DNA of 13,490 bases, from positions 1 to 13,490 of the forward strand of contig CAYXAY010000019.1 of assembly GCA_964463155.1 (NCBI GenBank), written 5' to 3'. The notes below the pieces were generated by a model. It was not told the DNA's origin, ran no database searches, and saw only the letters and a list, made by a program, of their open reading frames with translations. Of this stretch, positions 1-13,490 are shown in pieces. A program made the translations under genes and the position numbers. This DNA is from an uncultured archaeon. GTDB taxonomy: Archaea; Iainarchaeota; Iainarchaeia; Iainarchaeales; CSSED10-239. The first letter of the stretch is position 1; each line of letters starts with the position of its first letter.

Positions 1-46
1 ATAAGCTATACTACATAATATATAATATATTAATAAAATAAGTAAT

Positions 47-72
47 TAAATTAAGAATTTAAATTAAGAATT
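47..72. repeat. Perfect 13-bp tandem direct repeat (TAAATTAAGAATT x2) upstream of giant gene 1. The ATTAAGAA core occurs three times (50-57, 63-70, 70-77).
   Basis: Read directly: bases 47-59 and 60-72 are identical. A further ATTAAGAA overlaps the end of the repeat. It lies about 35-60 nt upstream of ATG 110, in a promoter/operator-like position. Confidence 0.8.
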
Positions 73-97
73 AAGAAAGAAATATTTACAAAAAAAT

Positions 98-101
98 GGT
101 G
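98..101 (+). promoter_or_regulatory. Shine-Dalgarno-like GGTG for gene 1
   Basis: GGTG lies 8 nt upstream of ATG 110. The same GGTG motif sits at a 7-nt spacing ahead of gene 2 (4794-4797). GGUG is complementary to the conserved 16S 3' end (..CACCUCC..). Confidence 0.45.
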
Positions 102-109
102 CAAAAAAC

Positions 110-3100
110 ATGGGAAAGAAACTATATTATTCTTTAGAAAACAAATGGTATGATTTTGTAGAAAATACAGGACTATATAAGATCACGGACAAGATAGATA
201 AGTTCATGCCGTCTTTTATATTTTTCATGCTTCTTGTGATTATGATAATTGCAGGAGTGTTCCTATTACTGCCAACAATAACTGGCGAAGGAGAAGTAGG
301 AATAACATTTAAAGTGATAGATGATTCTAGAGACCCAGTTCCACTTGCACCAGTAAGTGTCTCAACAATTGATAACTTCTACACATTAATAGCAAACGAA
401 GACGGAATCACCAGAAAAATAAATATTCCAAAAAACACAGAATACACAGTAGATATTGATTTTGTGGGAAGCAACTATGAAACATTTTCAATAGATTATT
501 TTGCAGAAGATAGTGAGCAAGTAACAATATATCTAACAGAAACCACAAGACAAACAACAACACGCTACACAGTAACATTGATTGATACATCCACAAAACA
601 AAAAATAAACGCGAACGGCAGGGCTGAGTTTACTTGTTCAAATCCAGGTGCAATAGCACCAGCTGCAGTAACAATAACAAACGGTGTGATTGATGTGAAT
701 GCTAATAGCAACTGTCAATTAAGGGCAACATCAATAACTCTTCAAGGCTATGACACAAGACATTCAACAGCTATAGGCCAGAACACAACTTCCATTGATT
801 TACAACGCACAACTATAGATTTAAAAGAAGCACATCCATTACATATCACAGTCAATGGAGAAGGCGGCGCTCCATTAACAGGAGTAACAGCAGCACTTTA
901 CGCTAATGGTGTAGCAATAGCAGGAAAAACTTGTGTAACACTTGCGGGTGTCTGTTCAATAACAGGAGTAGAAACAGGAAATTATGTCCTTAAAGTTACA
1001 GACACAAGGGTTGTCCCAGAATATGGTTCAACAAATGTTCCAATAACAATAACAGGAACAACAAACAGGACAGTTACTTTAACTAGAACAATTGCTGGTG
1101 ACATACGTGTAAAAGTAAGGAAAGCAAACGGTCAAGCAGTAGAAGGAGCAAACACTAAACTAAAATATGGAGACACAGAAATCTATAGTGGATTTTTAAC
1201 AGATGCAAATGGTTTAGTAACATTACCAGTTTATGATTTAACAAAAACATATAGAGTTGTTGTTGTAAAAGAAGGATACATGATTGCTTCACAAAGCAAT
1301 GTTACAGCAAGCGCAACAACACCAATAATAATAACCTTACAGGCAATAACCCCACAAACAGTTGCAACATTAAAGATTAGAGTTCTAAATAGCGAAACAG
1401 CAAAAGGCTTTTCTCATGCCCAAGTTGTTTTGTATGATGCTAAAACAGGATTTTTAACAGATTACGATTCACAAATAACAAACAGCGATGGAAACTGTAC
1501 ATTTAGAGTAAGCGCTGGCAGATATTATGCCAAAGCATTTAGAGGCTCATCAAGCGGCATAAGTGACGAGTTTGATTTTGATGTAAGAAATGCAACAGAC
1601 AGTAGTCCAGTAATTATTCCAATAGAGGTAGTTAAAGGAACTTTAAGAGTTTCTGTAGTAAACAACTATGGAGAGGCAGTTTCAAGAGCAAACATTATTT
1701 TATTTGACAAATATAGTTCTAGACAATCAGTGTGGGGCGGAGACCTCGCAAACATTGATGGAACATATGATATTTCTGAACTGACAGCGGACACCGAAGT
1801 TTATGCAGTAGTTTCAGATATACAGGATAACCTAGGCATGACACAATCAGAGTATGTTTATATTAGACCAGGAATTACAAACGATTTAAAAGTAACTCTT
1901 TATCCAAAGGTTTCTGCTTTACAAAAACCACAAATACAGTTTTTGGGTTTCTTTAATGATTCAGGAAACAAATTAAATGGATATTTAAGAGCTGGCGGAG
2001 ACTACAAGGCAAAATTCTTGTTATTAGTTCCACAAGAAAGAGATAGAGATGATGAGTTCCAAGAAGTTGGAGCGGTCATAAGAACTGGTTCAACAACAAG
2101 CACAGGAATCTCAACAACACCATATATGGAAAATGACAGCATTTACCTAAAATCAATTGATCTTCCAAACTCAGAGATTACAAAATACACTCAATATAGT
2201 TCTGAGGTAGGATATGATGGAATTGAAGATGAAGACACAATAACACAAGGCGATGCAAAATGGGCAAAGGTTGTTTTCAATGAAATCTATGGAAATAATT
2301 TTGCTAACGCTTATACAATAATGGCAGATGTTAAGATTAGAGATTCTGCAAGCTATGGTGAAAGAGTAAATGTCAGTTATTTGGGCTTTGGTTATAACGA
2401 AGACGATGAATATGAGACAGACCCTAATGATAATACAAATAATAATGATGTAGAATACATGACTTATAAAACAGAAAGCTTCAATATCGGAGAAGAACAA
2501 GCATGTTCAAAAGATTTCTGTTTTACTTTAAATATTACAGACCTATATGAAGACATAAGAAAAGACGTTGTTTCAGATTACACCGCAACCCCTCATCAAC
2601 ATTATAAGTTAAGGTTTGGATTAATCAATAACAATAAAAATAGAATACACAATAACTCAAGATTAGAACTTGAAAACAAAGATAAAGGCCTAACCTTTGA
2701 AAGCATAAACATAACTCAACCAAACGGGGTCCCCCAAAACATCACTCCAACAAACAACATCTACGAATATAAGATACCTGTTGAAAGATTTGACCCGCAC
2801 ACAACTCTTTCAGGAGAAATAAATTTCGTTCCTGTGTTAAAGGGAGATAGGCAGTTTGTTATTAGCTTTGTTTCTGATCAACAAGTAATATTTACAAAAC
2901 TTGTTGTAATACAGGTTTTGTCAGATAAAACATTTACTGTTAAAGTAACACCAGATGTCATACCTTCCGGAAAGAACTTCAATCTTCAAGTTGAAGTCAA
3001 AGATTCAAAGACAGGCATAGAGGTTGAAAATCCAGTAACCGTAAGAGTAAAAGATAGATTCAAAAGGGATTTGCTTGCAAACCCAGTACGAGTTGGACCA

Positions 3101-4660
3101 CTTGGAATTGCGTCAGTAAACAACATCCCTGGTCAACAATCCGGAGACAAGATTTATGTTTATGTTGAGGCACCAGAGTATGAGACAAGCATTACAGAAA
3201 AAGAAGTTACAGAAAATATCTTTAAGATTACTCCAACAAGACTAGGGGTGTCATTAAATATTAATACAAAACCACAAGACACAACAAAGTTTACACTTGA
3301 AAACCTAAGTGAAAACGAATTGACAATAGAGTCAATAAAACTAATAGGTAACGACAACCAGATTGATGTGATTGATGTCCAAAGAATAAACAATTCTCTT
3401 GCAGGATATTTCGGAACTGTAATACCTGGCTTTGACTCAAGCGAAACAGCAAACAACTACAATAACAAGCAAGAGATTGAAGCAAGATTCTTTACAAGCC
3501 CTAGAGTTGAAACAATACGCGAAGTTAGAAACATCAGCTCAAAGTTAATAATACAATTAAAGGACAAATACAATAAAGATTATGTTTGGGAAGCACAATT
3601 GCCAACAACAATAGCTGTAGGTTATGAAGGTTTAATGGACAATCCAAACTGTATAACTCTTTCAGATGGTTTCTGGGAGGCAACAGTAGTTGACAATTAT
3701 GTGGATAAGCAATTCACATTAAAGAATAATTGTGGAGTAAAGGAAAGACCAGTTCCATTAAACGGTGGCTTGTCAGCTAAAGTTGAGTTTGAAGGAAATC
3801 CATTAGGTCGGTTTACAGTAAATGTTGGAAACAGAGGCGTGGAATTATCACATGGTTATTTCAAGAACATCTATGACACAATTGACCAAGAGAAATCATA
3901 TAATGTTAATATAAGATATACTCCTGTTGGGAGATACACAGGAGACATCAAAGGTAAGATTATCTTTAGATCAGTTAATGCAACATCTTCTGGCAATCAA
4001 GAACTAATAACCGAATACAAGTTTGTATTGCATGTTGTTAGCCTAAAAGACTGTTATACAGTTTCAAAGAAAGTATTAACTGCTCCAGATACAGGACAAG
4101 CAGATGTCTTTGTCATTGAGAACAAAGGCTGTGGAGCAGAGACGATTTATAGATTGTCATGCGATGAATGTACAGGTCTTGTCATCAGCCCTAAGGAAGA
4201 TATAAAGGTTAGTGCAACAGGAACATCAGAAGAAATAAAAGTAATGTCTATGGGGGCAATGCCAGGGATGTACATACTAAACTTATATTCAAAGATAGGC
4301 GGAGCAAGAGGACATGAAAGAAATGTTGGGAGAGTAAGAGTAGAAGTAAGACCTGTAAGTCAATGTCTTGATCTTGACAGATATGAGTATGACTTGTACC
4401 GATATGCATATTCAGAAGGCAGCGGTCAAGCAACAACAGCAAAAAGCTTTGATATAGGAAACCTAATCAACCGTTGTTATGGCCAAGACGTAAAAATTAA
4501 AGGAACACTATCAGACGGGGTAAAATGGCGTGCAGCAGGCGTGAGCGGCTTAAGAGACGGGGTATTTACAGGCCTAACTTCCGCTTTAATAAAAAAAATA
4601 ATTCCAAACAAAAAGGCAAACACGGCAGAAATAAACCAGACAGCCACGGCGTCTTCATAA
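110..4660 (+). CDS. Giant membrane-anchored cell-surface protein (1,516 aa) with tandem carboxypeptidase-regulatory-like/Ig-like beta-sandwich domains and paired-Cys modules; function unknown ('A1')
   Basis: This is the longest closed ORF, running from ATG 110 to TAA 4658-4660. About 33 polar residues precede a hydrophobic helix, PSFIFFMLLVIMIIAGVFLLLP. Residues ~63-598 read as six repeats of ~85-90 aa. An example is IRVKVRKANGQAVEGANTKLKY..TDANGLVTLPV..YRVVVVKEGY, i.e. the 'V.V.D..G.P..GA.V.L...TD.NG.....L..G.Y.h.h..GY' pattern of CarboxypepD_reg/prealbumin-like folds. The C-terminal half contains Cys pairs (CSKDFC, NPNC..KNNC, KDC..NKGC). The protein is rich in Thr/Asn/Ile and no enzymatic motif was recognised. 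Confidence 0.9.
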   Translation: MGKKLYYSLENKWYDFVENTGLYKITDKIDKFMPSFIFFMLLVIMIIAGVFLLLPTITGEGEVGITFKVIDDSRDPVPLAPVSVSTIDNFYTLIANEDGITRKINIPKNTEYTVDIDFVGSNYETFSIDYFAEDSEQVTIYLTETTRQTTTRYTVTLIDTSTKQKINANGRAEFTCSNPGAIAPAAVTITNGVIDVNANSNCQLRATSITLQGYDTRHSTAIGQNTTSIDLQRTTIDLKEAHPLHITVNGEGGAPLTGVTAALYANGVAIAGKTCVTLAGVCSITGVETGNYVLKVTDTRVVPEYGSTNVPITITGTTNRTVTLTRTIAGDIRVKVRKANGQAVEGANTKLKYGDTEIYSGFLTDANGLVTLPVYDLTKTYRVVVVKEGYMIASQSNVTASATTPIIITLQAITPQTVATLKIRVLNSETAKGFSHAQVVLYDAKTGFLTDYDSQITNSDGNCTFRVSAGRYYAKAFRGSSSGISDEFDFDVRNATDSSPVIIPIEVVKGTLRVSVVNNYGEAVSRANIILFDKYSSRQSVWGGDLANIDGTYDISELTADTEVYAVVSDIQDNLGMTQSEYVYIRPGITNDLKVTLYPKVSALQKPQIQFLGFFNDSGNKLNGYLRAGGDYKAKFLLLVPQERDRDDEFQEVGAVIRTGSTTSTGISTTPYMENDSIYLKSIDLPNSEITKYTQYSSEVGYDGIEDEDTITQGDAKWAKVVFNEIYGNNFANAYTIMADVKIRDSASYGERVNVSYLGFGYNEDDEYETDPNDNTNNNDVEYMTYKTESFNIGEEQACSKDFCFTLNITDLYEDIRKDVVSDYTATPHQHYKLRFGLINNNKNRIHNNSRLELENKDKGLTFESINITQPNGVPQNITPTNNIYEYKIPVERFDPHTTLSGEINFVPVLKGDRQFVISFVSDQQVIFTKLVVIQVLSDKTFTVKVTPDVIPSGKNFNLQVEVKDSKTGIEVENPVTVRVKDRFKRDLLANPVRVGPLGIASVNNIPGQQSGDKIYVYVEAPEYETSITEKEVTENIFKITPTRLGVSLNINTKPQDTTKFTLENLSENELTIESIKLIGNDNQIDVIDVQRINNSLAGYFGTVIPGFDSSETANNYNNKQEIEARFFTSPRVETIREVRNISSKLIIQLKDKYNKDYVWEAQLPTTIAVGYEGLMDNPNCITLSDGFWEATVVDNYVDKQFTLKNNCGVKERPVPLNGGLSAKVEFEGNPLGRFTVNVGNRGVELSHGYFKNIYDTIDQEKSYNVNIRYTPVGRYTGDIKGKIIFRSVNATSSGNQELITEYKFVLHVVSLKDCYTVSKKVLTAPDTGQADVFVIENKGCGAETIYRLSCDECTGLVISPKEDIKVSATGTSEEIKVMSMGAMPGMYILNLYSKIGGARGHERNVGRVRVEVRPVSQCLDLDRYEYDLYRYAYSEGSGQATTAKSFDIGNLINRCYGQDVKIKGTLSDGVKWRAAGVSGLRDGVFTGLTSALIKKIIPNKKANTAEINQTATASS
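209..274 (+). other. N-terminal transmembrane/signal-anchor helix of gene 1 (aa 34-55)
   Basis: An uninterrupted hydrophobic run, PSFIFFMLLVIMIIAGVFLLLP, follows a Lys/Asp-rich leader (..YKITDKIDKFM). No signal-peptidase-like A-x-A site is obvious. Confidence 0.7.
296..1903 (+). other. Array of six tandem ~85-90-aa beta-sandwich (CarboxypepD_reg-like) domains in gene 1
   Basis: Repeated starts are VGITFKVID, RYTVTLID, LHITVNGE, IRVKVRKA, LKIRVLNS and LRVSVVNN. Each is followed by a '(T)D.(N/D)G' turn and a '..Y.h.h' strand. The array ends at Tyr598. Confidence 0.55.
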
Positions 4661-4793
4661 AAACAGTCCTCCGAAGACCAAGCAGAATAGGCTGGTTTAG
4701 TCAATACACGGGTGAGTTTAACTTCAGCCGATGCAAAATACAAAATGTAAATAAGTAACTAATATATTAAAATTTAATAATAAAAAAACATAA

Positions 4794-4797
4794 GGTG
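4794..4797 (+). promoter_or_regulatory. Shine-Dalgarno-like (AA)GGTG for gene 2
   Basis: GGTG lies 7 nt upstream of ATG 4805. I saw no hairpin plus T-run between genes 1 and 2, so co-transcription is plausible. Confidence 0.45.
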
Positions 4798-4804
4798 TAA
4801 AAAA

Positions 4805-4882
4805 ATGAAATCAAATCTAAAATTTGTTTTAGGACTAACAATGGCTTTGTTGCTATTGTTTAGTGTAGGAAATGTTTATGCG
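4805..4882 (+). other. Predicted Sec-type signal peptide of gene 2 (aa 1-26, cleavage after VYA)
   Basis: A basic n-region (MKSNLK) precedes the hydrophobic core FVLGLTMALLLLFSV and a small-residue c-region (GNVYA). Confidence 0.7.
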
Positions 4883-7708
4883 GGGGGTACTTCTAACAAT
4901 AACACCACAGCAACACTCTCCGCCTTACAGTCTGCCTTTAATCTGATTACTGGCGTTTTTGGCAAGCTTGTCGGTGGACCGTTCTGGCTACACGGTATTG
5001 TCGCAGGAGCAACATCTGCATTTAAAACATACAGTGCTCTTGATCAAACAATCAAAATGAATCTAAGAAGTGAAAGAGTAAATGTCTCTGACAACGAGTT
5101 TGTTTCAGAGGACGCAAAAAAAGAACTAAGGATTGATTTTGACAACAACGTAGTATTAACAGACCAAAATGTATTAGATATTGATTTCATAGTTACAAGA
5201 AAAGCAAAAGAGTTTAAAGATACACAAGGACGAGAAAAAAGCCCAAAAATCAGATGGGCAGAAAAAACAGAGACAATAGATGTTATAGATGTTAATAACC
5301 AAAAAACAAAAGGACAAAAAAGAGCAATATTGTTTGAAGACTTAAACCAAACAATAAAGCAAGCATCAGAATATAGAACATTAGTAATTGAATACAAACA
5401 AGCAGAGTTTGGAAGACAGCCAGTAAAGATAACAATTGAAGACATTGACGATTTATATGGCAATGGAATGAGCTGGTTAAGAGTATTTACAACAGGTGTA
5501 GACCAGGCAAAGGAAAAACTTATTGACAGAATGGACAATTTAGAAAACGTATATGCTAAAAGAGAACCAAACCCATCACCAAACAAAGCACAAAAATTCC
5601 GTTTATTATTCAACTCAAGAGTAGATGATAATGAGACAATAAGCTCAGAACTACTTGATTGTACAAACGAAAAAGGAGACCCGATAGGTTCAACAGGAAC
5701 AGAAGTATTACCAAAAGTAGCATACAATTGGGACTTTAAAGAAAATAACACAGTAATCCCAATAGCTGGGGAAACTTCAAAAGTAGTAAACAACACTTGG
5801 TGTGATGTTGCAACAAATGGAATATATTGTGATGCAACACAAACAACAATAGAAGTATTACAAAAAATAAACACAATAAATGAGTTTGTAGAACTACATC
5901 GCGCAAACTTCACTTGCCCAACAGGAGCAGAAACACAAAACCTAGCAAGTGACATTAACAATGTTGGAATTGTTTATCTAAATGTAACTTCAGTTACTGA
6001 AAAAAAAGCAACATTTGAATACAAGATAAGAGGGAATTATCAAACTACAATACTACCTGCACCAAGAACACTATTTGATATTAACTATACTGTTCAAAAG
6101 AAGGCAGAGAATTCATTTAATTGGATAACAATAGCATCAGGGACAAAAATAATCGGTCACGAATACCTAAATAATGGCATCATAGATGAAACAATCCAAT
6201 CAACCTTTTCAACAGCAGCAACCGCAGAGGACACTATAAAAATAAAAGTATTCTTAACAAACTTTAATGCAATAATATCAAACAATGAAATTGGAAACAA
6301 CATAATAGACAATTCTTTAGAAGTTCAAACAAGTATAGAAGGGGGAACAGCAGGATGTACTCTAGAAAAGACAACAGAAAACCTAAAGAAATACCATCCT
6401 GAGTTTGATGAAAAACTATACAACTTCAAAGCATATCTAATGAAAGATGGATACAGTAATGATTTCAAGAAGGACTTTGATGAATATTACAGATTAACAT
6501 TTAACACAGGAATACCGAACTGGTATGATAATGCTGAAACATCATATTCTCCATTATACAAATACTTTATAGATCCGCAAAAATTCAAATTCAAACAAAG
6601 ATTTGCTAACGAAATTGAACAAACTATGCTTCCGGGACCAGGAAGATACAATGTAAAGATACTGATATATTATGATGATAATTGGAAACTATTCAATGAC
6701 AGAGGAGACATAACAGGAAAGATAGAGATCATTCTTGACAAAGAACAAAATCCAGAGCTTGATTCTCCACTATACTATATGCCACTTGACGGAATGGTAG
6801 GAAGCACAGGAGACAAGACAAGAAATGGCTATGGTGTAGATTATTTAGATGATAAGGTTCCAATATTTTTAGATTCTCAACACAATTATACTACAGCAAT
6901 GTTTACTGAAGGCTATCTTTCTTCAAACACAATTTCAACAATAAAGACAAAAGAGATAAAGGACTTTTCTACAATGAACAACGGAAACGAAAGAGGAAAG
7001 CTATTATCAATAACTAGAGCGCAAAACAATATATTAAACTTAAGATATATACCCTCAAGACCAACACCAGTAGCATTAAAAGTAACAAACACAAAAGCAA
7101 ACACACATGCCTATGCTTTCTATAAGTTATCAGTTGGTTTACCAATAGATCAAGGCGGAGAAGTTGCAACACCTGGTTTAAGTCTAGCAAATTGGACAGG
7201 AATTGGAGCAAGCAAACAATGTAGAGACTTTTCTGGAATACCAATACTTGAAAGATTCCTAGCAAGTGATGACCTTGTTTCAACAGAATCAGAACTAGGA
7301 CCAGTAACTCAAAGCCAAAGCCACAGTTATGGTGTTGAATGGAATAAGAATATTATCAGAAGAACAGGAAATGTTTGGTTATATACAATATTCTACACTC
7401 CTGCAAATTTCAAGACAGGCCCAGGAATAAGTTATTTGTATATTGATTCTGCAAACGACAATGCATTATTGTTTACAATAGATAACACTCAAAGAGACGG
7501 AAGTCAAAACGTAGCCTTAAAAAATAGATTTGAAAAAGACATTAAATCAATAACTGATGTCTTTGAATTAGTAAAAAACAAAAATGCATGTATATACAAC
7601 GACAGCAAATCACTAGATGTATTCTACAATCCAAAGAAAATCTCAGAGCCATTGACAGACGCTATTGAACACGGCCTAGACAGAGAAGGTGCTTGTATAA
7701 AGCACTAG
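4805..7708 (+). CDS. Secreted 967-aa protein with 8 Cys, unknown family ('B1'), probable partner of gene 1
   Basis: The ORF runs from ATG 4805 to TAG 7706-7708. The N-terminus MKSNLKFVLGLTMALLLLFSVGNVYA|GG is a classical n-h-c signal peptide with no lipobox Cys. It is followed by a Gly/Ala-rich hydrophobic stretch (aa ~43-73). The mature part has an even number of Cys (8). No catalytic motif such as HExxH was recognised. Confidence 0.9.
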   Translation: MKSNLKFVLGLTMALLLLFSVGNVYAGGTSNNNTTATLSALQSAFNLITGVFGKLVGGPFWLHGIVAGATSAFKTYSALDQTIKMNLRSERVNVSDNEFVSEDAKKELRIDFDNNVVLTDQNVLDIDFIVTRKAKEFKDTQGREKSPKIRWAEKTETIDVIDVNNQKTKGQKRAILFEDLNQTIKQASEYRTLVIEYKQAEFGRQPVKITIEDIDDLYGNGMSWLRVFTTGVDQAKEKLIDRMDNLENVYAKREPNPSPNKAQKFRLLFNSRVDDNETISSELLDCTNEKGDPIGSTGTEVLPKVAYNWDFKENNTVIPIAGETSKVVNNTWCDVATNGIYCDATQTTIEVLQKINTINEFVELHRANFTCPTGAETQNLASDINNVGIVYLNVTSVTEKKATFEYKIRGNYQTTILPAPRTLFDINYTVQKKAENSFNWITIASGTKIIGHEYLNNGIIDETIQSTFSTAATAEDTIKIKVFLTNFNAIISNNEIGNNIIDNSLEVQTSIEGGTAGCTLEKTTENLKKYHPEFDEKLYNFKAYLMKDGYSNDFKKDFDEYYRLTFNTGIPNWYDNAETSYSPLYKYFIDPQKFKFKQRFANEIEQTMLPGPGRYNVKILIYYDDNWKLFNDRGDITGKIEIILDKEQNPELDSPLYYMPLDGMVGSTGDKTRNGYGVDYLDDKVPIFLDSQHNYTTAMFTEGYLSSNTISTIKTKEIKDFSTMNNGNERGKLLSITRAQNNILNLRYIPSRPTPVALKVTNTKANTHAYAFYKLSVGLPIDQGGEVATPGLSLANWTGIGASKQCRDFSGIPILERFLASDDLVSTESELGPVTQSQSHSYGVEWNKNIIRRTGNVWLYTIFYTPANFKTGPGISYLYIDSANDNALLFTIDNTQRDGSQNVALKNRFEKDIKSITDVFELVKNKNACIYNDSKSLDVFYNPKKISEPLTDAIEHGLDREGACIKH

Positions 7709-7721
7709 TTTTTTTATTTTT
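7689..7721 (+). terminator. Hairpin plus oligo-T terminator overlapping the gene 2 stop codon
   Basis: GTGCTT (7689-7694) pairs perfectly with AAGCAC (7700-7705) around the 5-nt loop GTATA. This is followed by TAG, then T7 (7709-7715), A, T5 (7717-7721) and further T-runs. It is compatible with a bacterial intrinsic terminator or an archaeal oligo-T terminator. Confidence 0.6.
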
Positions 7722-7798
7722 GTAATTTTTAAATTTTTACCCCTCTATTTATAAGATTTACAAAAAAATCAAACCTATGATGTTAAATACTTAGTAAT

Positions 7799-8041
7799 AT
7801 GATTTATATGCGGAAAACTATGAAGTTTGACATTGTTCTAGAAAAACAAAAAGAAGGCGGTTATACAGTCTATGTTCCATCTTTGCCTGGTTGCATCTCC
7901 CAAGGCGAGACAGAAAAAGAAGCCATAACAAATATTAGAGAAGCAATAGAAATGTATATTGAAGAAATCAATTCAAATAAACTAAAAACCATGTTAAATT
8001 CTTTTTCTATCAAACAAACACAAGTGACTATTAATGTATAA
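7799..8041 (+). CDS. hicB: HicB-family antitoxin (UPF0150/HicB-like), short form without a recognisable DNA-binding domain
   Basis: MKFDIVLEKQKEGGYTVYVPSLPGCISQGETEKEAITNIREAIEMYIEE matches the HicB N-terminal consensus (..E..e.GGY.a.VP.LPGC.sqG.T.eEA..n.keAIe.yle). The true start may be ATG 7808 or ATG 7820 (MKFD..), both in frame. The TAA stop is at 8039-8041. It overlaps hicA by 8 nt. Confidence 0.85.
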   Translation: MIYMRKTMKFDIVLEKQKEGGYTVYVPSLPGCISQGETEKEAITNIREAIEMYIEEINSNKLKTMLNSFSIKQTQVTINV

Positions 8042-8252
8042 GATTGATAATCTTTCAGCTAAGGATGTAATAAAGATTTTGCAACTTAAAGGTTATTTTA
8101 TACTAAGACAAAAAGGCAGTCACATGCTACTTAAAAACAAAGACAACAAAATAATGGTCATTCCAAACCACAAAACCCTAAAAATAGGAACAACGCGTCA
8201 AATAATCAAATCTATTGACTTAATAAAGCAAGGAGTTGAAAGATTATTATAG
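8034..8252 (+). CDS. hicA: HicA-family mRNA-interferase toxin (YcfA-like)
   Basis: LSAKDVIKILQLKGYFILRQKGSHMLLKNKDNKIMVIPNHKTLKIGTTRQIIKSIDL matches the HicA consensus (l..kelik.L.k.Gf...RqkGSH..l.......t.vP.H..elk.GTl..IlkqagL), including the GSH histidine. Its ATG lies within the end of hicB (ATGTATAA overlap), which indicates translational coupling. The TAG stop is at 8250-8252. Confidence 0.9.
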   Translation: MYKIDNLSAKDVIKILQLKGYFILRQKGSHMLLKNKDNKIMVIPNHKTLKIGTTRQIIKSIDLIKQGVERLL

Positions 8253-8322
8253 CCACAATTAACTTCTTAACTTAAATAACCAATAACCTTTAAATATCTT
8301 TCTTTCTCTAATATAAATAGAT

Positions 8323-8330
8323 TTTAAATA
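8323..8330 (+). promoter_or_regulatory. TATA-box-like TTTAAATA about 20-25 nt upstream of ATG 8349 (candidate archaeal-type promoter, short or absent leader)
   Basis: TTTAAATA is centred about 23 nt upstream of the start codon of gene 5. Only a degenerate GGATGTG (8334-8340) is available as an SD. AT-rich background makes chance TATA-like matches common. Confidence 0.25.
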
Positions 8331-8348
8331 TATGGATGTGAAAAGATT

Positions 8349-11300
8349 ATGTCATTTGCTTTAAAATACCAGGCATTTTTAGAGAAAATAAATACTAGAA
8401 TGCCAATCAAATGGTTAACAAAACCAATAGATAAGATTCATCCTCTAACTTCTTTTTTCGTGTTTATATTAATAGTCTTAGCAATATTGTTCTTTATCTT
8501 TAAACCACACATTCTTCCTGAAGCAAAAATAGAATACATGTCTTTTACAATAGGTCTTACAGACAGCAATGGACAGCTACTTAAAAACTTTGAGTTTGAA
8601 ATAAAAAATTTCAAAGACAATGTAACTCAAACCCATAGGACAGGAAACAACGGGCAGTTAATCATTGAACTTGACAAGTTTGGACATTATTCTATTATTG
8701 TTGACAAAAAAGGATATAAGTACACAGAAGAGTCAATTGATTTGTCAAGAGACAAACAACACTTTGTAATACAATTATTTAGTCTTCCAACAACCCAAAA
8801 CAAAGCCTTAATGTTTGTTGGAACTGACGGCAAACCAATTTCTGAAAACCTAAATGTTACAATCACTTGCCGAGACGGAACTACAATAGACCCATCAACA
8901 GCAACAGTGATAAACGGAACAGGAAACTTTACGGTTCCAGTATCCTGTAATTATCTTGTTGCAACCGCTATAGGAAACACATATTCTGGACAAAACATTC
9001 CAATCAACCAAACAACAGGAATAGTGACTGTTCCTCCAAGAGCAGCAAACACAAGCGTTGGAAGAGTGACAATAAAAACTAGTAGTAATAATAATTTTTT
9101 AGATAGAATAACACTAAGAATATACAAGGAAGGAAACACCATTGATTCAATTGCTTCTGGACAAACAACAACAGGTTACAAGTCTTTTGCAAACATAGAG
9201 ACAGGAAACTATATAGTTATTGCAACAGACGATTCGTTAAGATATCAAACAGCAAACTCAACATTTACTGTCACAAAAAACACAGAAACACAAGTGACAA
9301 TTGACTTGGTTCCAATTGCAGGAAACGAAACGACCCCAGGAATAAACACAAGAGACATAAAAGTCATAGTAAAGGATTTAGATACAAACCAAGAGCTAGA
9401 CTCAACATCTCTAACAAACATAATCTTAACAACAACAATTGGTGGTTCTCCTCAAACAGTAGACACAAAACCATATGTTTCTGCAGGAGTAATCTTTAGA
9501 ATTGATTCAAGCAAGCAATATTCATTAACTGTAAGAGCAGAAGGCTATATTGCCCAAGTAAAAAACATAACACCAAACATTAATGATTATATGATTTTTT
9601 TAGAAAAAGAAACAGTAAGCAATGTTTCTGATATCAATGTCAGTGTGAGAGATGAAGACAACCTTCCAGTAATCGGTGCAACACTATTGATTTATGATGG
9701 TAGTTCTGAATTTTTAGATACTAGATTTAGATCAGTAATAACTGACAATAACGGCAGCACAAGCTTTGATAACATACCAAGAGGATATTATTTTATTAGG
9801 CTAAGAAAAAACAATGTTGTTTCTCAATCCCCAAAATTTAATCATAATCCTCCAAGCGACACAAATCTTTCAATGAACATCAACATAGGTCAAGGAACAA
9901 TCAATCTTACAATAAAAAATACCGCTAATGAGATTATTAATTTTGCAAACATAAGGATATTTGATATTAGTGGAAGAGAAATAGGAGTTGACCAGGCAAC
10001 GCAAGCAGGAACATACACAAGGAGACTAAAAGCCGACAAGACGGTTTATATAAAGATTTCAAAAGACGGCTATTTTGATTATTACACAGAGTTATTGCCA
10101 ATTATTGGTGGAGAAACAATCAACAAAGAAATAAAACTAACAAGACTAGGGACAATAAATGTTCCAACAGCAGAGCTTGTTGGTTTATATAATATGCAAG
10201 ACCGTTCTGCAACCCACTTAACCCAAAACACAAGATATTATTTCAAGTTTAGAATCATTAATCCGAGTTCAGGAAACATTGGTTTAAGGTTTATGATTGG
10301 AGAGAAAAATACAGCAACAGAAGACATAGTTTATATAAAACCAATAACAGACTCCAAAGCAAACATTAGTTATTATAGTAATACAAACCTTGACATTGTT
10401 GCTCAAGATGTTCCTGCAAAAATAGCGGACGCAATCTTTGTAAATGCTAGTCAAGCAGTATATGAACTATTAATACCAGTAACCACTGTACAAGCAAGAA
10501 GAGGGCAAGCAATTCCTATCTATTATTCTGTTTTTACTGCTAATCCTCCAGCAATAAATAACCTAACAAACCAAAATGTCTATTACATTGATGTTTCAGA
10601 AATATGTTCAGAAAACTTTTGTATATCAGGCCAATATCTTGATATTGAAAGTGATATTATTTATGACTTGTCTACAACAAACCCAATGGTTGTAAACAAA
10701 AACTATGACTTAAAATATGTTTTAACAAACGCAAAGTCAAATGTTTACATAGGTAATAGACTGTCAATAACAAATGTAGAAAACTCGTCAGAAATGCAAG
10801 CGCATTCAATTGATATTAGCTATTACAATATCTTTGGTAATGGTTTTTCATACACCAGTAATTCTGGAAACCAATTAAGAAACAAAATACCATTTACTTC
10901 TGAGTTCTTGAATCTACCACAGATTAATGTTTATGATAAGATTAATATTAACTCCAAAATAAAACCAGCAGTTCTTGGAACAACAAGATTGCAAAACAAG
11001 ATAATCTCTAACCAAGCAATAGCATATAACCAATTCATTAGTTTTAATGTTTCACAACAATATCCTTTCACAATAGATTATGAACCAAAGAACATAGTTC
11101 CAGGAAGGCCATTTAACATGACAGTAACTGCTCTTGGCAACTCGGCAATACCAGTAAACAACGCCATAGTAAATGTTTATCAAAGACTTGCAAACAACCA
11201 GCTAGTAACAGTAACAAATGGAAGCTTTAGAACAAACGATTATGGACAAGCAATTGTTGCTCTTCCAGCAGTGCGAAATGGTGAAAAAATAATTATTGCT

Positions 11301-13490
11301 GTTGAGAAAAGCGGATATTACGCTCAACCATTAGAGATAACAATAACTCAAAACATCTTGTCTTTAAAGCAAGGAACAACAGCAGTAACTGACAATGCGC
11401 CATTTACAATTAATGTTCATAAGTCAAATGCTCTTGGCACAGAAAAAACATTAACAATAATAAATAAGACAAACTACCCATTAAGATTAAAGCAATTTAG
11501 AGACGATAGTTTTAGCTTTAGAAATTCAAACTATTTAAATATAGAACAATTACAAAACCACTTAAACAGCCAAGTAGATGGTATAGTTATTCCAGCTAAT
11601 GGTGAAGACAACCTAAAAATAAAATTATCAGCATCTCAAGATGCAACAAATGTCACAGAAACAATAAACATAACCGGAAACATAATAGGTTATGTCACTG
11701 TTGACAACTCAATAACAGAATATCCTTTCAATATCCCAATGAATGTTAAGATTTCAGTTGGAGAAGGAGTAGAAGCAGACGATTGTTTAACATTTACAGG
11801 AATGAGCAATCCTTTTGAGGCAGTTGTTGGAGGAAATGGCTTTACAACAGAAAGCTTTACAATAATAAACAACTGTAAAAGAAAAGGAAACGATGAACAA
11901 GGCGTTGTTCTAAACGCTCTAAGGGCAAAAGTTGTAAACACAAAAGACCAATATGGTTATTACACTTTAAGAGTAAGAGAAAGAACAATAACACTTTCAG
12001 AAGGCGCTTACACAACAATACTTAGTGATTTAGAGCCTGGCCCATATGATGCTACACTAACCTATTACTCCATGGATAAAAAGATTGGAGATGTAGAAAG
12101 CAAGATTTACATTAATGCTCAGATAGAGACAGACACTGGTTTAAAATATGTAAACACAACAAGAGATGTTGCATTTACAACAAAGATAGCAATAAGAAAG
12201 ATAGAAGACTGTATTGACTTCTATGATGACGGCAAAAAGATAAACAACATGCTTGTTATTCCTAAAGAAATCAACACAACAGAAGTAAAAGACATAACAA
12301 TAAAAAACAACTGCTCAACACTTGGAAGATTTAAGTTATACTTTTGTGGAGAATACAAAGAATATGAGGGTTGTCAAGAACTAAGATACGAAAACATGCT
12401 AGGATATCTACAAAACGAGCTAAGCTTCAATCTTGGAGAAGACTCACAAATTGTAGGAATCATTAAGCCAGATGTTCCTGGTGGCTATATAATCCCAGTA
12501 AGAGTATCAATCTTAAGCGACAGCGGAAGAGCAATAGCAACTGTTGAAAAAAGACTAAAAGTAAATGTACAGTCAGGAAGAGCAAACAGCCTATACATGG
12601 TAGATCCATTTATTGAAGTAGAAAAAGTAATAACTTCTAGAAATCAAAACACCTATGTAAGTCCAGAAGTCAAGCTACTAAACAGCGACATCAACAAGAC
12701 TCCTTGGTATTATGCTACACGGAAAGTTGGTGATACTGGATTTAGTAAATATATGAATGAATTTTCGCCGGAATCAAGTGTATTAGAGAAAGTTATATTT
12801 GTTAATTTTGAAACATTTACAGTTAATAAAGAAGGCATGGATTCATTTTTGCGTGGTTGGGTAGAAGCCACATATATAATAGGTATGTCGGTTATTTCAT
12901 TCGTTTGTTTGGTTTGTGCATTGGCTCTATTGACGGTTCAAATAGTTGATTGGTTATTACCGTCATTAACTAACAACTATAAAGAAGATGTAACTTATAA
13001 TATGCCAAAAATCTATGAAGATTTCTTAAAAACTAGCCCAGATATAGAAAAAGCGAAAACAATAAATGTTGTTGGTAATACCGATACAGCATATATTTCT
13101 ATAATTGACATTACGGGTGCGAGATATAGACAATTATATAATTTAAAAAATCATATACACGGGAAATTAATAAGCGATATTACTATTTCCCAAAAATTGG
13201 ATTTGTGTTCAAAAAATAATTACCAAACTGTTGGCGCAGATGCGTTTTGGAGTGAAAACCCAAAAAACTGTGATAATTTAAGAGTTACTACTGATGGTAC
13301 CGGATATAAATACACAGTAGATTGTGATGGCGCTTGGAATTTTGGTAGCAAAAAGATCGATGCAACATATAATGGCATATTAGAATGTAGATTTAATGAA
13401 ACAATTTGGCCAGAGCAAGCAGGCATCAAACCCCTTATCTTTAATGTGTCGGATACAAATTTAATTAATAGACTAAAAATGGGCGAAACA
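8349..13490 (+). CDS. Second giant surface protein, 3'-truncated by the window edge (>=1,714 aa). It is a paralogue of gene 1 ('A2') that continues past an internal TM helix into a Cys-containing tail ('B2'-like).
   Basis: This ORF is not in the ORF track. I translated the frame by hand, codon by codon, from ATG 8349 to base 13490 and found no stop. The nearest upstream in-frame stop is TAA 8325-8327, and ATG 8349 is the first ATG after it. The product starts MSFALKYQAFLEKINTRMPIKWLTKPIDKIHPLTSFFVFILIVLAILFFIF, followed by six CarboxypepD_reg-like repeats (e.g. INVSVRDEDNLPVIGATLLIYD..TDNNGSTSFDNIPRGYYFIRL). It then has CSENFC, DDC..INNC and EDC..KNNC modules collinear with gene 1. Confidence 0.9.
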   Translation, partial: MSFALKYQAFLEKINTRMPIKWLTKPIDKIHPLTSFFVFILIVLAILFFIFKPHILPEAKIEYMSFTIGLTDSNGQLLKNFEFEIKNFKDNVTQTHRTGNNGQLIIELDKFGHYSIIVDKKGYKYTEESIDLSRDKQHFVIQLFSLPTTQNKALMFVGTDGKPISENLNVTITCRDGTTIDPSTATVINGTGNFTVPVSCNYLVATAIGNTYSGQNIPINQTTGIVTVPPRAANTSVGRVTIKTSSNNNFLDRITLRIYKEGNTIDSIASGQTTTGYKSFANIETGNYIVIATDDSLRYQTANSTFTVTKNTETQVTIDLVPIAGNETTPGINTRDIKVIVKDLDTNQELDSTSLTNIILTTTIGGSPQTVDTKPYVSAGVIFRIDSSKQYSLTVRAEGYIAQVKNITPNINDYMIFLEKETVSNVSDINVSVRDEDNLPVIGATLLIYDGSSEFLDTRFRSVITDNNGSTSFDNIPRGYYFIRLRKNNVVSQSPKFNHNPPSDTNLSMNINIGQGTINLTIKNTANEIINFANIRIFDISGREIGVDQATQAGTYTRRLKADKTVYIKISKDGYFDYYTELLPIIGGETINKEIKLTRLGTINVPTAELVGLYNMQDRSATHLTQNTRYYFKFRIINPSSGNIGLRFMIGEKNTATEDIVYIKPITDSKANISYYSNTNLDIVAQDVPAKIADAIFVNASQAVYELLIPVTTVQARRGQAIPIYYSVFTANPPAINNLTNQNVYYIDVSEICSENFCISGQYLDIESDIIYDLSTTNPMVVNKNYDLKYVLTNAKSNVYIGNRLSITNVENSSEMQAHSIDISYYNIFGNGFSYTSNSGNQLRNKIPFTSEFLNLPQINVYDKININSKIKPAVLGTTRLQNKIISNQAIAYNQFISFNVSQQYPFTIDYEPKNIVPGRPFNMTVTALGNSAIPVNNAIVNVYQRLANNQLVTVTNGSFRTNDYGQAIVALPAVRNGEKIIIAVEKSGYYAQPLEITITQNILSLKQGTTAVTDNAPFTINVHKSNALGTEKTLTIINKTNYPLRLKQFRDDSFSFRNSNYLNIEQLQNHLNSQVDGIVIPANGEDNLKIKLSASQDATNVTETINITGNIIGYVTVDNSITEYPFNIPMNVKISVGEGVEADDCLTFTGMSNPFEAVVGGNGFTTESFTIINNCKRKGNDEQGVVLNALRAKVVNTKDQYGYYTLRVRERTITLSEGAYTTILSDLEPGPYDATLTYYSMDKKIGDVESKIYINAQIETDTGLKYVNTTRDVAFTTKIAIRKIEDCIDFYDDGKKINNMLVIPKEINTTEVKDITIKNNCSTLGRFKLYFCGEYKEYEGCQELRYENMLGYLQNELSFNLGEDSQIVGIIKPDVPGGYIIPVRVSILSDSGRAIATVEKRLKVNVQSGRANSLYMVDPFIEVEKVITSRNQNTYVSPEVKLLNSDINKTPWYYATRKVGDTGFSKYMNEFSPESSVLEKVIFVNFETFTVNKEGMDSFLRGWVEATYIIGMSVISFVCLVCALALLTVQIVDWLLPSLTNNYKEDVTYNMPKIYEDFLKTSPDIEKAKTINVVGNTDTAYISIIDITGARYRQLYNLKNHIHGKLISDITISQKLDLCSKNNYQTVGADAFWSENPKNCDNLRVTTDGTGYKYTVDCDGAWNFGSKKIDATYNGILECRFNETIWPEQAGIKPLIFNVSDTNLINRLKMGET
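8448..8501 (+). other. N-terminal transmembrane/signal-anchor helix of gene 5 (aa 34-51)
   Basis: The hydrophobic run TSFFVFILIVLAILFFIF follows the leader ..KPIDKIHPL, in the same position and context as in gene 1. Confidence 0.7.
8538..10148 (+). other. Array of six tandem beta-sandwich (CarboxypepD_reg-like) domains in gene 5
   Basis: Repeat starts are MSFTIGLTD, ALMFVGTD, GRVTIKTS, IKVIVKDL, INVSVRDE and INLTIKNT. The array ends at about residue 600, against 598 in gene 1. Confidence 0.55.
12873..12947 (+). other. Internal hydrophobic (transmembrane-like) helix of gene 5, aa 1509-1533
   Basis: YIIGMSVISFVCLVCALALLTVQIV is the only long hydrophobic run after the N-terminal anchor. It is flanked by ..FLRGWVEAT and DWLLPSL. 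Confidence 0.6.

Follow-up and report, generated by a model that had tools for sequence, protein, structure and literature searches.

The last 5.1 kb of the window (the whole stretch of DNA analysed here, which is one entire 13,490-bp NCBI MAG contig) is occupied by a genuine coding gene, gene 3, that begins at ATG 8349 on the forward strand, runs to position 13490 and is truncated by the contig end. The 5' ~70% that is present encodes, as the fused A+B form, the first ~70% of a membrane-anchored DPANN surface protein of about 2,470 residues. The gene is a member of an uncharacterised giant surface-protein family and is not new in kind. Genes 1 to 3 lie within a conserved co-directional module that spans at least ~35 kb and includes four family members. 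Taken as a whole, a genuine contig-truncated fused A+B surface-protein gene in a conserved module, with an anchored, non-enzymatic product that would act as an adhesin or envelope scaffold, is very probably the right reading. For annotation, 38% of the contig is one gene hidden by a track of closed ORFs only; with gene 3 recognised, "two big genes and empty space" becomes a fragment of a multi-paralog surface-protein module. The initial annotation held that the gene changes how the whole locus reads, and it does: genes 1, 2 and 3 are parts of one surface-protein module. The genes of the window are as follows.

110..4660, forward strand: gene 1, 1,516-aa paralog of module A alone
4805..7708, forward strand: gene 2, 967-aa paralog of module B alone, whose N-terminus resembles a signal peptide
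7799..8252, forward strand: HicB-HicA toxin-antitoxin pair, between gene 2 and gene 3
7799 or 7820 to 8041, forward strand: hicB (Pfam HicB_lk_antitox, E=5.6e-13)
8034-8252, forward strand: hicA (Pfam HicA_toxin, E=9.4e-15)
8349..13490, forward strand: gene 3, partial CDS, 1,714 codons, with ~750 more missing past the contig end

Machine translation of the forward frame from ATG 8349 to 13490 gives 1,714 codons with zero stops, as expected from the stop-free giant ORF originally proposed. The frame is preceded by a TAA ending at 8327, and its first start codon is ATG 8349. At 1,721 codons it contains the longest open run in all six frames (gene 1 has 1,530), which makes gene 3, as claimed, the largest in the window. 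Mononucleotide shuffles of its 5.1 kb (n=200) have longest open runs of 79 codons on average and 160 at most. In a codon log-odds model trained on genes 1 and 2, the gene 3 frame scores +0.333 bits/codon and the other five frames score -0.054 to -0.873; the frame thus outscores the antisense frames (+0.33 vs at most -0.05 bits/codon), and it is the best-scoring frame in 8 of 8 sliding windows of 300 codons each. GC by codon position (0.39/0.35/0.24) is like that of genes 1 and 2. The suggested likeness to gene 1 in composition and domain grammar also stands: amino-acid compositions correlate at r=0.93, CarboxypepD_reg domains occur in both products, and BLASTP aligns gene 3 aa 23-1264 with gene 1 aa 25-1295 at 23% identity (E=2e-33).

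Gene 3 is missing from the ORF track because its frame lacks a closing stop inside the window. The ORF lister, by its own description, skips ORFs running off either end; this description and the position of the gene at the contig edge agree with the early suspicion that the track was limited to ORFs closed inside the window. At a 60-aa threshold the lister returns exactly four minus-strand ORFs of 60-83 aa in 8349-13490, reproducing the four short ORFs first reported for the last 5.1 kb. Window positions 6870-12644 recur in an independent Logan assembly (SRR11582140) with 5 mismatches and no indels. This Logan contig was found via an exact HicA protein look-up and is 5,778 bp long, shorter than the window contig; the strain-level comparison yields just 5 differences in all, 3 of them in gene 3. 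An exact-protein look-up with gene 2 returned no record, a 33-mer taken from the window end has no exact match in JGI metagenome contigs, and the HicA, gene 2 and 33-mer look-ups together found no overlapping contig carrying the 3' end of gene 3.

The extent of the missing end is given by orthologs. Seventeen full-length orthologs and three genomic ones, the latter of 2,476, 2,496 and 2,484 aa, match gene 3 collinearly at 99-100% query coverage (E=0, 35-62% identity), and 19 collinear orthologs (E=0, 35-57% identity) are 2,476-2,518 aa long. Orthologs run 747-759 aa past gene 3 aa 1713 to a conserved C-terminus of the ...EFYWNPK... type. Because full-length orthologs are 2,476-2,518 aa, some 750 residues are missing from gene 3, and the full size of 2,400-2,500 aa that had been predicted for it fits. 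Synteny around the orthologs is kept down to 35% identity. The gene order A, B, fused gene is found in the window, in L002/L003 and in L008, and two other large genes lie between in L006; the conserved module also has partner genes of ~140 aa and ~750 aa.

All named family members are proteins from DPANN MAGs (Ca. Diapherotrites, Ca. Micrarchaeota), labelled either "hypothetical" or "carboxypeptidase regulatory-like domain"; the window is placed among these archaea by its homologs and not by a marker gene. A full-length member consists of a conserved leader, a hydrophobic anchor, module A (~1,450 aa of successive beta-sandwich domains), a hydrophobic Gly/Ala-rich junction, a linker domain and the module B core (~700 aa), with total lengths of ~2,200-3,250 aa. 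In a search with the B profile, 521 representative clusters came up, 241 of them at E<=1e-30; most are 2,200-3,250 aa long with B at the C-terminus, and the family these represent is without a characterised member. The B core carries a YCDATQ motif and invariant Cys, Trp and Asp positions. The literature searched contains general reports of DPANN giant surface proteins and none on the family of gene 3.

On sequence comparison, genes 1 and 2 (1516+967=2483 aa) are identified as a conserved split (A, B) paralog of fused gene 3, since module A of gene 3 matches gene 1 and the ortholog B core matches gene 2 (ortholog P0001 aa 1763-2488 align to gene 2 aa 265-948, E=2e-44). In the spacer between the two genes (4661-4804), the frame shared with gene 1 is interrupted by at least 7 stops. 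Both halves are conserved: gene 1 has orthologs at 64% identity in L002 and 44% in L008, and those of gene 2 are at 39-60% identity. The B-like, gene 2-sized tail that the initial annotation assigned to gene 3 is confirmed in the orthologs, but B homology is not visible inside the window. There, BLASTP detects nothing in common between gene 3 aa 1541-1714 and gene 2, and profile-profile comparison with hhalign gives a probability of 0.3%; the alignable B core begins just past the contig end and can be seen only through the distal tails of the orthologs. The tail was thus rightly deduced from the architecture, without being seen in the window. A signal-peptide-like start is present in 31 of 39 split B proteins. 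Fused and naturally split versions of one two-module protein adjoin here, so that module export and interaction can be tested.

The HicB-HicA pair stands outside the surface-protein family. Its two genes overlap by 8 nt, both Pfam matches exceed gathering scores, PADLOC has no model matching the pair, and the corresponding position in L002, L005, L006 and L008 lacks it. PHROGs and PADLOC searches with genes 1 to 3 gave no matches, and a viral or defence origin of these genes was rejected on that ground. Rfam, tRNA and DNA-repeat scans detected no RNA genes, recent duplication or DGR-like template/variable repeats.

The probability that the open frame is an accident of non-coding composition (A-rich, AT-rich, with few stops) or an artefact of assembly is practically nil. 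The window is 33% GC with strong positive AT skew, and one antisense frame of the gene 3 region scores near zero, not strongly negative; such an accident is nevertheless refuted by a run of 1,714 codons set against a shuffle maximum of 160, by the top codon score in every sliding window, by Pfam domains to E=9e-17 and by E=0 orthologs that cover every residue, and the independent Logan assembly speaks against an artefact. It is very unlikely that gene 3 is a pseudogene in this genome or is organised in another way, as a second split. Its 3' ~750 codons do lie beyond the contig, adjacent genes 1 and 2 show that a gene split at the A/B boundary can persist, and the HicAB insertion is a local rearrangement. 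However, the gene 3 frame runs 174 codons beyond the junction, where genes 1 and 2 split, and the fused gene is unbroken in 19 of 19 orthologs and in the genomic copies examined from four related loci. Since the window is a whole contig, truncation by assembly suffices for gene 3.

The contig-truncated gene 3 has the following features along its length.

8289..8341, forward strand: upstream block of gene 3, three elements with similar spacing before the ATG of the orthologs in L002, L005 and L006
8289-8296, forward strand: TTTAAATA, element in the conserved upstream block
8312-8319, forward strand: TATAAATA, element in the conserved upstream block
8334-8341, forward strand: GGATGTGA, SD-like element in the conserved upstream block
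8349..8444, forward strand: leader at the N-terminus, aa 1-32; the family motif ...KPIDKxxP... stands directly before the anchor
8445..8501, forward strand: hydrophobic membrane anchor, aa 33-51, LTSFFVFILIVLAILFFIF, Kyte-Doolittle peak 3.09
8532..10148, forward strand: module A, first part, aa ~62-600, prealbumin-like/Ig-like beta-sandwich repeats (CarboxypepD_reg, SpaA, PEGA)
10149..12833, forward strand: module A, second part, aa 601-1495, all-beta sandwich chain with no Pfam match
12858..12968, forward strand: hydrophobic A/B junction, aa 1504-1540, WVEATYIIGMSVISFVCLVCALALLTVQIVDWLLPSL, Kyte-Doolittle peak 2.77
12969..13490, forward strand: post-junction linker domain, aa 1541-1714, four-Cys beta-sandwich conserved in gene 3 orthologs

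The upstream block is likely an archaeal TATA-type promoter followed by a ribosome-binding site, with putative functions for its elements. A leaderless transcript for gene 3, from TTTAAATA at -26, was considered and dropped because the orthologs keep boxes at -60 and -37 and GGATGTGA at -15, and do not conserve the -26 box. The start of gene 3 is itself conserved in orthologs (consensus N-terminus MSFxxKYQxFL...). Gene 3 aa 1-51 align with the family consensus, which has a leader (...PIDKxxP-SF) and then the hydrophobic anchor; in 107 aligned family N-termini the leader motif reads LKDxYxxLEDKYYxFLDKI..IPIYxIxDPIDKxVPSF, and it is shortened in gene 3 and its orthologs. The Lys/Arg-rich flank suggests that the leader is presumably cytoplasmic. 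A hydrophobic anchor occurs within the first 100 aa in 107 of 108 fused-size family members.

In the first part of module A, Pfam matches are to CarboxypepD_reg (E=8.9e-17, best stretch aa 429-508), SpaA (E=1.2e-11, aa 242-317) and PEGA (E=3.1e-5, aa 387-413); the search also matched SdrD_B. The second part has conserved Cys pairs, e.g., C753/C758 and C1146/C1176, and is modelled by AlphaFold2 as nearly all strands (mean pLDDT 74.5). Strands continue in the post-junction linker (model residues 943-1096, pLDDT about 57-77). Pfam and NCBIfam searches detected no enzymatic domain in genes 1 to 3, the orthologs or the conserved neighbours, and PDB sequence searches with gene 3, gene 2 and the family profile returned nothing significant.

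The gene 3 junction coincides with the break point between gene 1 and gene 2. Orthologs carry Gly/Ala-rich blocks of 40-58 aa at this position, and a hydropathy threshold for the junction is passed by 58 of 108 family members (median 38.5 aa, ~880 aa before the C-terminus). In gene 3 the block is ~29-37 aa without a central Pro/Gly turn, short for a two-helix hairpin, and AlphaFold leaves it unmodelled (pLDDT 26-38). The module B model has a mean pLDDT of 63, with the first ~280 aa poor. Its fold search against the PDB gave local beta-sandwich matches of ~136 columns only, to GH2 mannosidase and Brr2 Ig-like domains (TM about 0.09), and comparison with BFVD gave nothing meaningful. Readings of module B as a glycosidase, a fusogen or a viral receptor-binding protein were rejected because the fold matches are local and the BFVD comparison gave nothing meaningful. 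The predicted B core appears to be without a structural counterpart in the PDB, a provisional statement because the model is only moderately confident.

In the proposed topology, the N-terminal segment of the gene 3 product would act as a signal-anchor (N-in), so that module A would extend outward as a long, beaded stalk. A junction that crossed the membrane once would place module B in the cytoplasm, contradicting the signal peptide of gene 2. The junction block may instead form a membrane hairpin or re-entrant segment, in which case module B would also be outside; the stand-alone B protein, gene 2, begins with a cleavable-looking signal peptide, in agreement with this placement. The gene 3 protein would be a non-enzymatic surface structure, either a host-directed adhesin or contact structure or an envelope scaffold, and the four anciently diverged paralogs may work jointly and not as variants that replace one another. 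For the family, we infer from sequence a function in surface adhesion or envelope structure.

That the family consists of S-layer or envelope-lattice proteins, purely structural and without a host-contact role, is doubtful. These proteins are membrane-anchored, rich in beta-sandwiches and free of enzymatic domains, they bear sequons, and four conserved paralogs in fixed order would suit a hetero-oligomeric lattice. However, Pfam and NCBIfam detected no known S-layer domain, the 30 N-glycosylation sequons of gene 3 are not above expectation (25.6 +/- 4.3 in shuffles), and S-layer subunits are typically smaller than a two-module protein of ~2,500 aa. An unlikely, more specific proposal is that the module encodes a hetero-oligomeric, double-anchored surface apparatus confined to DPANN archaea of the Diapherotrites/Micrarchaeota type, with B as a new host-binding or membrane-active head that would attach to the host or open a connection with it. 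An archaeal alpha-2-macroglobulin or thioester-containing protein, trapping proteases or covalently tagging targets, is extremely improbable. Foldseek with aa 601-1714 does find complement C5, CD109, A2M, TEP1, PrgB and ciliary central-pair proteins (E down to 5e-19; for C5, CD109, A2ML1, TEP1 and bacterial A2M, about 1e-14 to 1e-11), and distant family members match Pfam MG4 and bMG3. Despite the low E-values, superposition is poor (TM-score 0.09-0.15, rmsd above 38 A), a likeness of sandwich strings and not of architecture, and unrelated Ig arrays (the ciliary proteins and PrgB) match equally well. Genes 1, 2 and 3 lack the CxEQ thioester motif, gene 3 and the full-length orthologs have no Pfam A2M or TED match, and aa 601-1714 are modelled as all-beta, with few helices, of 4-12 residues, and no thioester domain. 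With motif, TED and superposable architecture all absent, this identity was rejected.

Among known systems, the alpha-2-macroglobulin, C3-C5, CD109 and TEP1 proteins resemble gene 3 in that the second half of module A is an MG/Ig-like beta-sandwich chain; by Foldseek, gene 3 is not superposable on the MG1-MG8 architecture, and in contrast to A2M proteins it has no helical TED, is membrane-anchored and carries the extra B module. NOMO1-like proteins have repeated CarboxypepD_reg domains, and orthologs give a faint match to PF22904 (NOMO1-like_2nd). NOMO itself is eukaryotic, sits in the ER membrane and is anchored at its C-terminus; domain type alone is common to it and the gene 3 family. The SpaA, SdrD B-repeat and PrgB adhesins and pilins share prealbumin/Ig-like domains and the "stalk of beads" logic with gene 3. 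Unlike sortase-anchored adhesins of Gram-positive bacteria, the family is archaeal and is anchored at the N-terminus and by an internal hydrophobic block. In 13 full-length orthologs the last 60 aa contain no PGF, the mark of a PGF-CTERM (archaeosortase) signal, and the C-terminus lacks both LPxTG and a hydrophobic segment; one LPxTG was found, at aa 938 of P0001, inside the protein and away from the C-terminus where a sorting signal would lie.

DPANN genomes are ~1 Mb, yet tens of kilobases are spent on giant surface proteins, which are prime candidates for host recognition and attachment. The SPEARE proteins of Nanohaloarchaeota (SVXNc_0300, BNXNv_0298) are very large and membrane-anchored, with tandem Ig-like ectodomains, and have been proposed to mediate host contact; they are 8,880-9,409 aa long in two strains and have a VirB4/TraG-like ATPase domain and a neighbouring secretion ATPase (PMC10266531). 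Gene 3 is like them in its DPANN origin, membrane anchor and tandem Ig-like ectodomain, a functional class in common and not homology, as no sequence homology between the gene 3 family and SPEARE proteins was found; it differs in its size of ~2,470 aa and in that genes 1 to 3, the orthologs and the neighbours have no ATPase domain. The closest counterparts of gene 3 are its orthologs. HRS42546.1 (Ca. Diapherotrites archaeon, 2,484 aa, "hypothetical protein") is collinear with it over 1,713 alignable residues at 56% identity. Gene 3 is contig-truncated and has HicAB upstream, and otherwise does not differ in kind from HRS42546.1-like orthologs; together with HRS42546.1 and MBI4052687.1 / MFH0954736.1 (labelled "carboxypeptidase regulatory-like domain-containing protein"), it has a common leader, anchor, A module, junction and genomic position.

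Translated on the forward strand, positions 8349 to 13490 of the window yield 1,714 codons and no stop, as the initial annotation had claimed for a giant ORF absent from the supplied ORF list. The frame is open from 8328 (a TAA ends at 8327), and its first start codon is the ATG at 8349. The resulting run of 1,721 codons is the longest among the six frames; in shuffled 5.1-kb sequence the longest open run averages 79 codons, with a maximum of 160. The suspicion that the list held only ORFs closed inside the window is also borne out: run with its defaults, the ORF lister gives only four ORFs in the interval, all on the minus strand and 60–83 aa long, and by its own description it omits ORFs that run off an end. 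The finding of this gene, gene 3, corrects an artefact of that list. The products of genes 1 and 2 are recorded from an NCBI contig of 13,490 bp, the same length as the window. The window is therefore an entire MAG contig, and what truncates the gene is an assembly boundary rather than a biological one. The Logan assembly of run SRR11582140, which is independent, matches 6870–12644 with five mismatches and no indels. The relevant features are:

110–4660, forward strand: gene 1 (1,516 aa), a stand-alone module A (N-terminal chain of beta-sandwich domains)
4805–7708, forward strand: gene 2 (967 aa), a stand-alone module B (C-terminal part)
7799 or 7820 to 8041: HicB-like antitoxin gene
8034–8252: HicA toxin gene, overlapping the HicB gene by 8 nt
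8349–13490, forward strand: gene 3, running off the contig end

The coding-potential comparison suggested in the initial annotation favors the gene 3 frame. A codon model trained on genes 1 and 2 and applied to all six frames scores it at +0.333 bits/codon, versus −0.054 to −0.873 for the other five, and it is the best frame in eight of eight sliding windows of 300 codons. A reciprocal model trained on gene 3 recognizes gene 1 (+0.37) and gene 2 (+0.33). Gene 3 agrees with genes 1 and 2 in codon-position GC and in amino-acid composition (r=0.93), and its aa 23–1264 align to gene 1 aa 25–1295 (23% identity, E=2e-33), in agreement with the composition and domain grammar earlier said to be shared with gene 1. 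The start at ATG 8349 is supported by an N-terminus conserved in orthologs (MSFxxKYQxFL...) and by an upstream block common to three orthologous loci (TTTAAATA at −60, TATAAATA at −37, and GGATGTGA at −15 to −8). In genes 1 and 2 a GGTG motif lies 8–9 nt 5' of the ATG (window 93–109 and 4789–4804); gene 3 is without that arrangement and instead carries GGATGTGA at 8334–8341, kept in orthologs. Both elements resemble Shine-Dalgarno sites, which makes leaderless transcripts improbable for genes 1–3. The presumed gene 1 promoter region also holds an AT-rich 13-nt tandem repeat (window 34–74; consensus unit TAAATTAAGAAT, 3.2 copies).

A protein search recovers 19 collinear orthologs of gene 3 (E=0, 35–68% identity), 17 of them full-length at 2,476–2,518 aa; those with names are from Ca. 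Diapherotrites or unclassified "archaeon" MAGs. Genomic orthologs (2,484 aa in locus L002, 2,496 aa in L005, and 2,476 aa in both L006 and L008) run 747–759 aa past the residue aligned to gene 3 aa 1713, so the complete protein should be about 2,460–2,475 aa, inside the 2,400–2,500 aa originally predicted. A genome scan also gave a 50-residue match to aa 533–582 (48% identity) in a Bacteroidaceae contig (L007 10001–10147), which was rejected as a family member since the match is short and isolated.

The expected "B-like tail" holds by inference from orthologs: aa 1763–2488 of the full-length ortholog P0001 align to gene 2 aa 265–948 (E=2e-44), and other orthologs do likewise. Inside the window the homology is not visible: BLASTP detects none between gene 2 and the 174 post-junction residues of gene 3, and the profile–profile probability is 0.3%; the B core would begin just beyond the contig end. 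Genes 1 and 2 together amount to 2,483 aa, the size of one fused member, and lie in the same reading frame. Their 144-nt spacer (4661–4804) holds at least seven in-frame stops, and each is kept as a separate gene in relatives down to 39–44% identity. The gene fission is thus old and stable, and sequencing error does not account for it. In the fused form, the hydrophobic junction between A and B sits exactly at this break, and the start of gene 2 resembles a signal peptide (...FSVGNVYA/GG). In two near-identical Diapherotrites contigs (L003 1888–6915 and L002 1860–6915), the gene 1 ortholog is called at 1,675 aa in one, while the other has a call of 1,553 aa and a separate fragment of 97 aa, which suggests a strain-level frameshift or a variable module A C-terminus beside the fission point. 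Within gene 2, a 305-aa antisense ORF with a TTG start (5044–5961, minus strand) is most likely a by-product of strong strand composition bias; the best antisense frame of gene 2 scores 0.09 bits/codon and the sense frame 0.33.

A search of 1.84 billion proteins with a profile of stand-alone B proteins recovers 521 representative clusters, and 241 of these reach E≤1e-30. Most measure 2,200–3,250 aa and carry B at their very C-terminal end, and the stand-alone form (~970–1,090 aa) is a small, closely related minority; the dominant fused layout is therefore probably ancestral. All named members are Ca. Diapherotrites or Ca. Micrarchaeota MAG proteins, labeled "hypothetical" or "carboxypeptidase regulatory-like domain-containing." An N-terminal anchor is present in 107 of 108 fused-size members, and 58 have a junction block over the hydropathy threshold. 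These blocks have a median length of 38.5 aa and reach 72 aa; many are rich in Gly/Ala and have Pro/Gly at the center. A leader motif, LKDxYxxLEDKYYxFLDKI..IPIYxIxDPIDKxVPSF, is conserved family-wide directly before the anchor and could be a dedicated targeting/secretion signal or a cytoplasmic docking site. The leader region spans 8349–8444 in gene 3 and 110 to ~210 in gene 1. About 50 positions of module B are invariant, among them six Cys and a YCDATQ motif. The module B model averages pLDDT 63, with aa 285–967 mostly at 70–88, and has no global structural counterpart in PDB or BFVD. By homology, gene 3 is a truncated ortholog in an existing, uncharacterized DPANN surface-protein family.

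Gene order is conserved around gene 3 orthologs at 56% and 35% identity.

Conserved gene order around gene 3 orthologs
1: fused giant, ~2,350–2,390 aa
2: A, ~1,550–1,760 aa
3: B, ~980–1,007 aa
4: fused, gene 3 type, 2,476–2,484 aa
5: gene of ~135–155 aa
6: gene of ~720–790 aa
7: gene of ~1,980–2,110 aa, fourth family member

The last gene has a gene-1-like leader and a B-like C-terminus; no Pfam domains were found in the partner genes. The co-directional four-paralog module (fused, split A+B, fused, fused), with its ~140-aa and ~750-aa genes, is seen in L002 1–27455 and L008 1–27431. The window is the middle of such a module, whose length we estimate from gene sizes at 35 kb or more; in a DPANN genome of ~1 Mb this would be a few per cent. 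The paralogs are mutually only ~21–24% identical, yet each is conserved across genomes, a pattern that favors separate roles exercised in co-operation over a set of interchangeable variants. The HicB–HicA pair lies between genes 2 and 3 in this genome only; the matching position holds ~100–140-bp spacers in L002 and L008 and other large genes in L005 and L006. This distribution suggests that the pair was inserted into the surface-protein module in this lineage alone.

The first ~600 aa of gene 3 match the Pfam domains CarboxypepD_reg (E=8.9e-17) and SpaA prealbumin-like (E=1.2e-11), as well as PEGA. PDB sequence searches and viral and defence family searches gave no match. An AlphaFold2 model of aa 601–1714, built from a 19-row alignment, is almost all beta-strand (mean pLDDT 74.5), and its Foldseek matches are MG/Ig-like sandwich arrays (E down to 5e-19, TM 0.09–0.15): complement C5, CD109, A2ML1, TEP1, bacterial A2M, PrgB, and ciliary central-pair proteins. 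With TM this low, the predicted likeness is one of domain type, not architecture. The gene 3 sequence has no CxEQ thioester motif, and the model has no helical domain.

Hydropathy places an N-terminal anchor at aa 33–51 and a second hydrophobic block at aa 1504–1540. In the proposed topology, the Lys/Arg-rich leader would remain cytoplasmic, the first segment would act as a signal-anchor, and module A would reach out of the cell as a long stalk built of sandwich domains. At the junction, the second hydrophobic block would dip back into the membrane, either as a hairpin or as a re-entrant segment, putting the Cys-containing linker and module B outside the cell as well, which agrees with the signal peptide on stand-alone B. 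The gene 3 block is short for a hairpin, which makes this topology tentative. Beyond gene 3 itself, interest lies in the conserved fused/split paralog pair, a module B without structural match, and the conserved four-paralog module. As no catalytic domain was detected, a structural or adhesive role, in host-cell attachment or envelope scaffolding, is best supported, its main rival being an S-layer-type role for the family. Attachment or scaffolding would resemble the roles proposed for other DPANN giant surface proteins (PMC10266531; PMC5498576).
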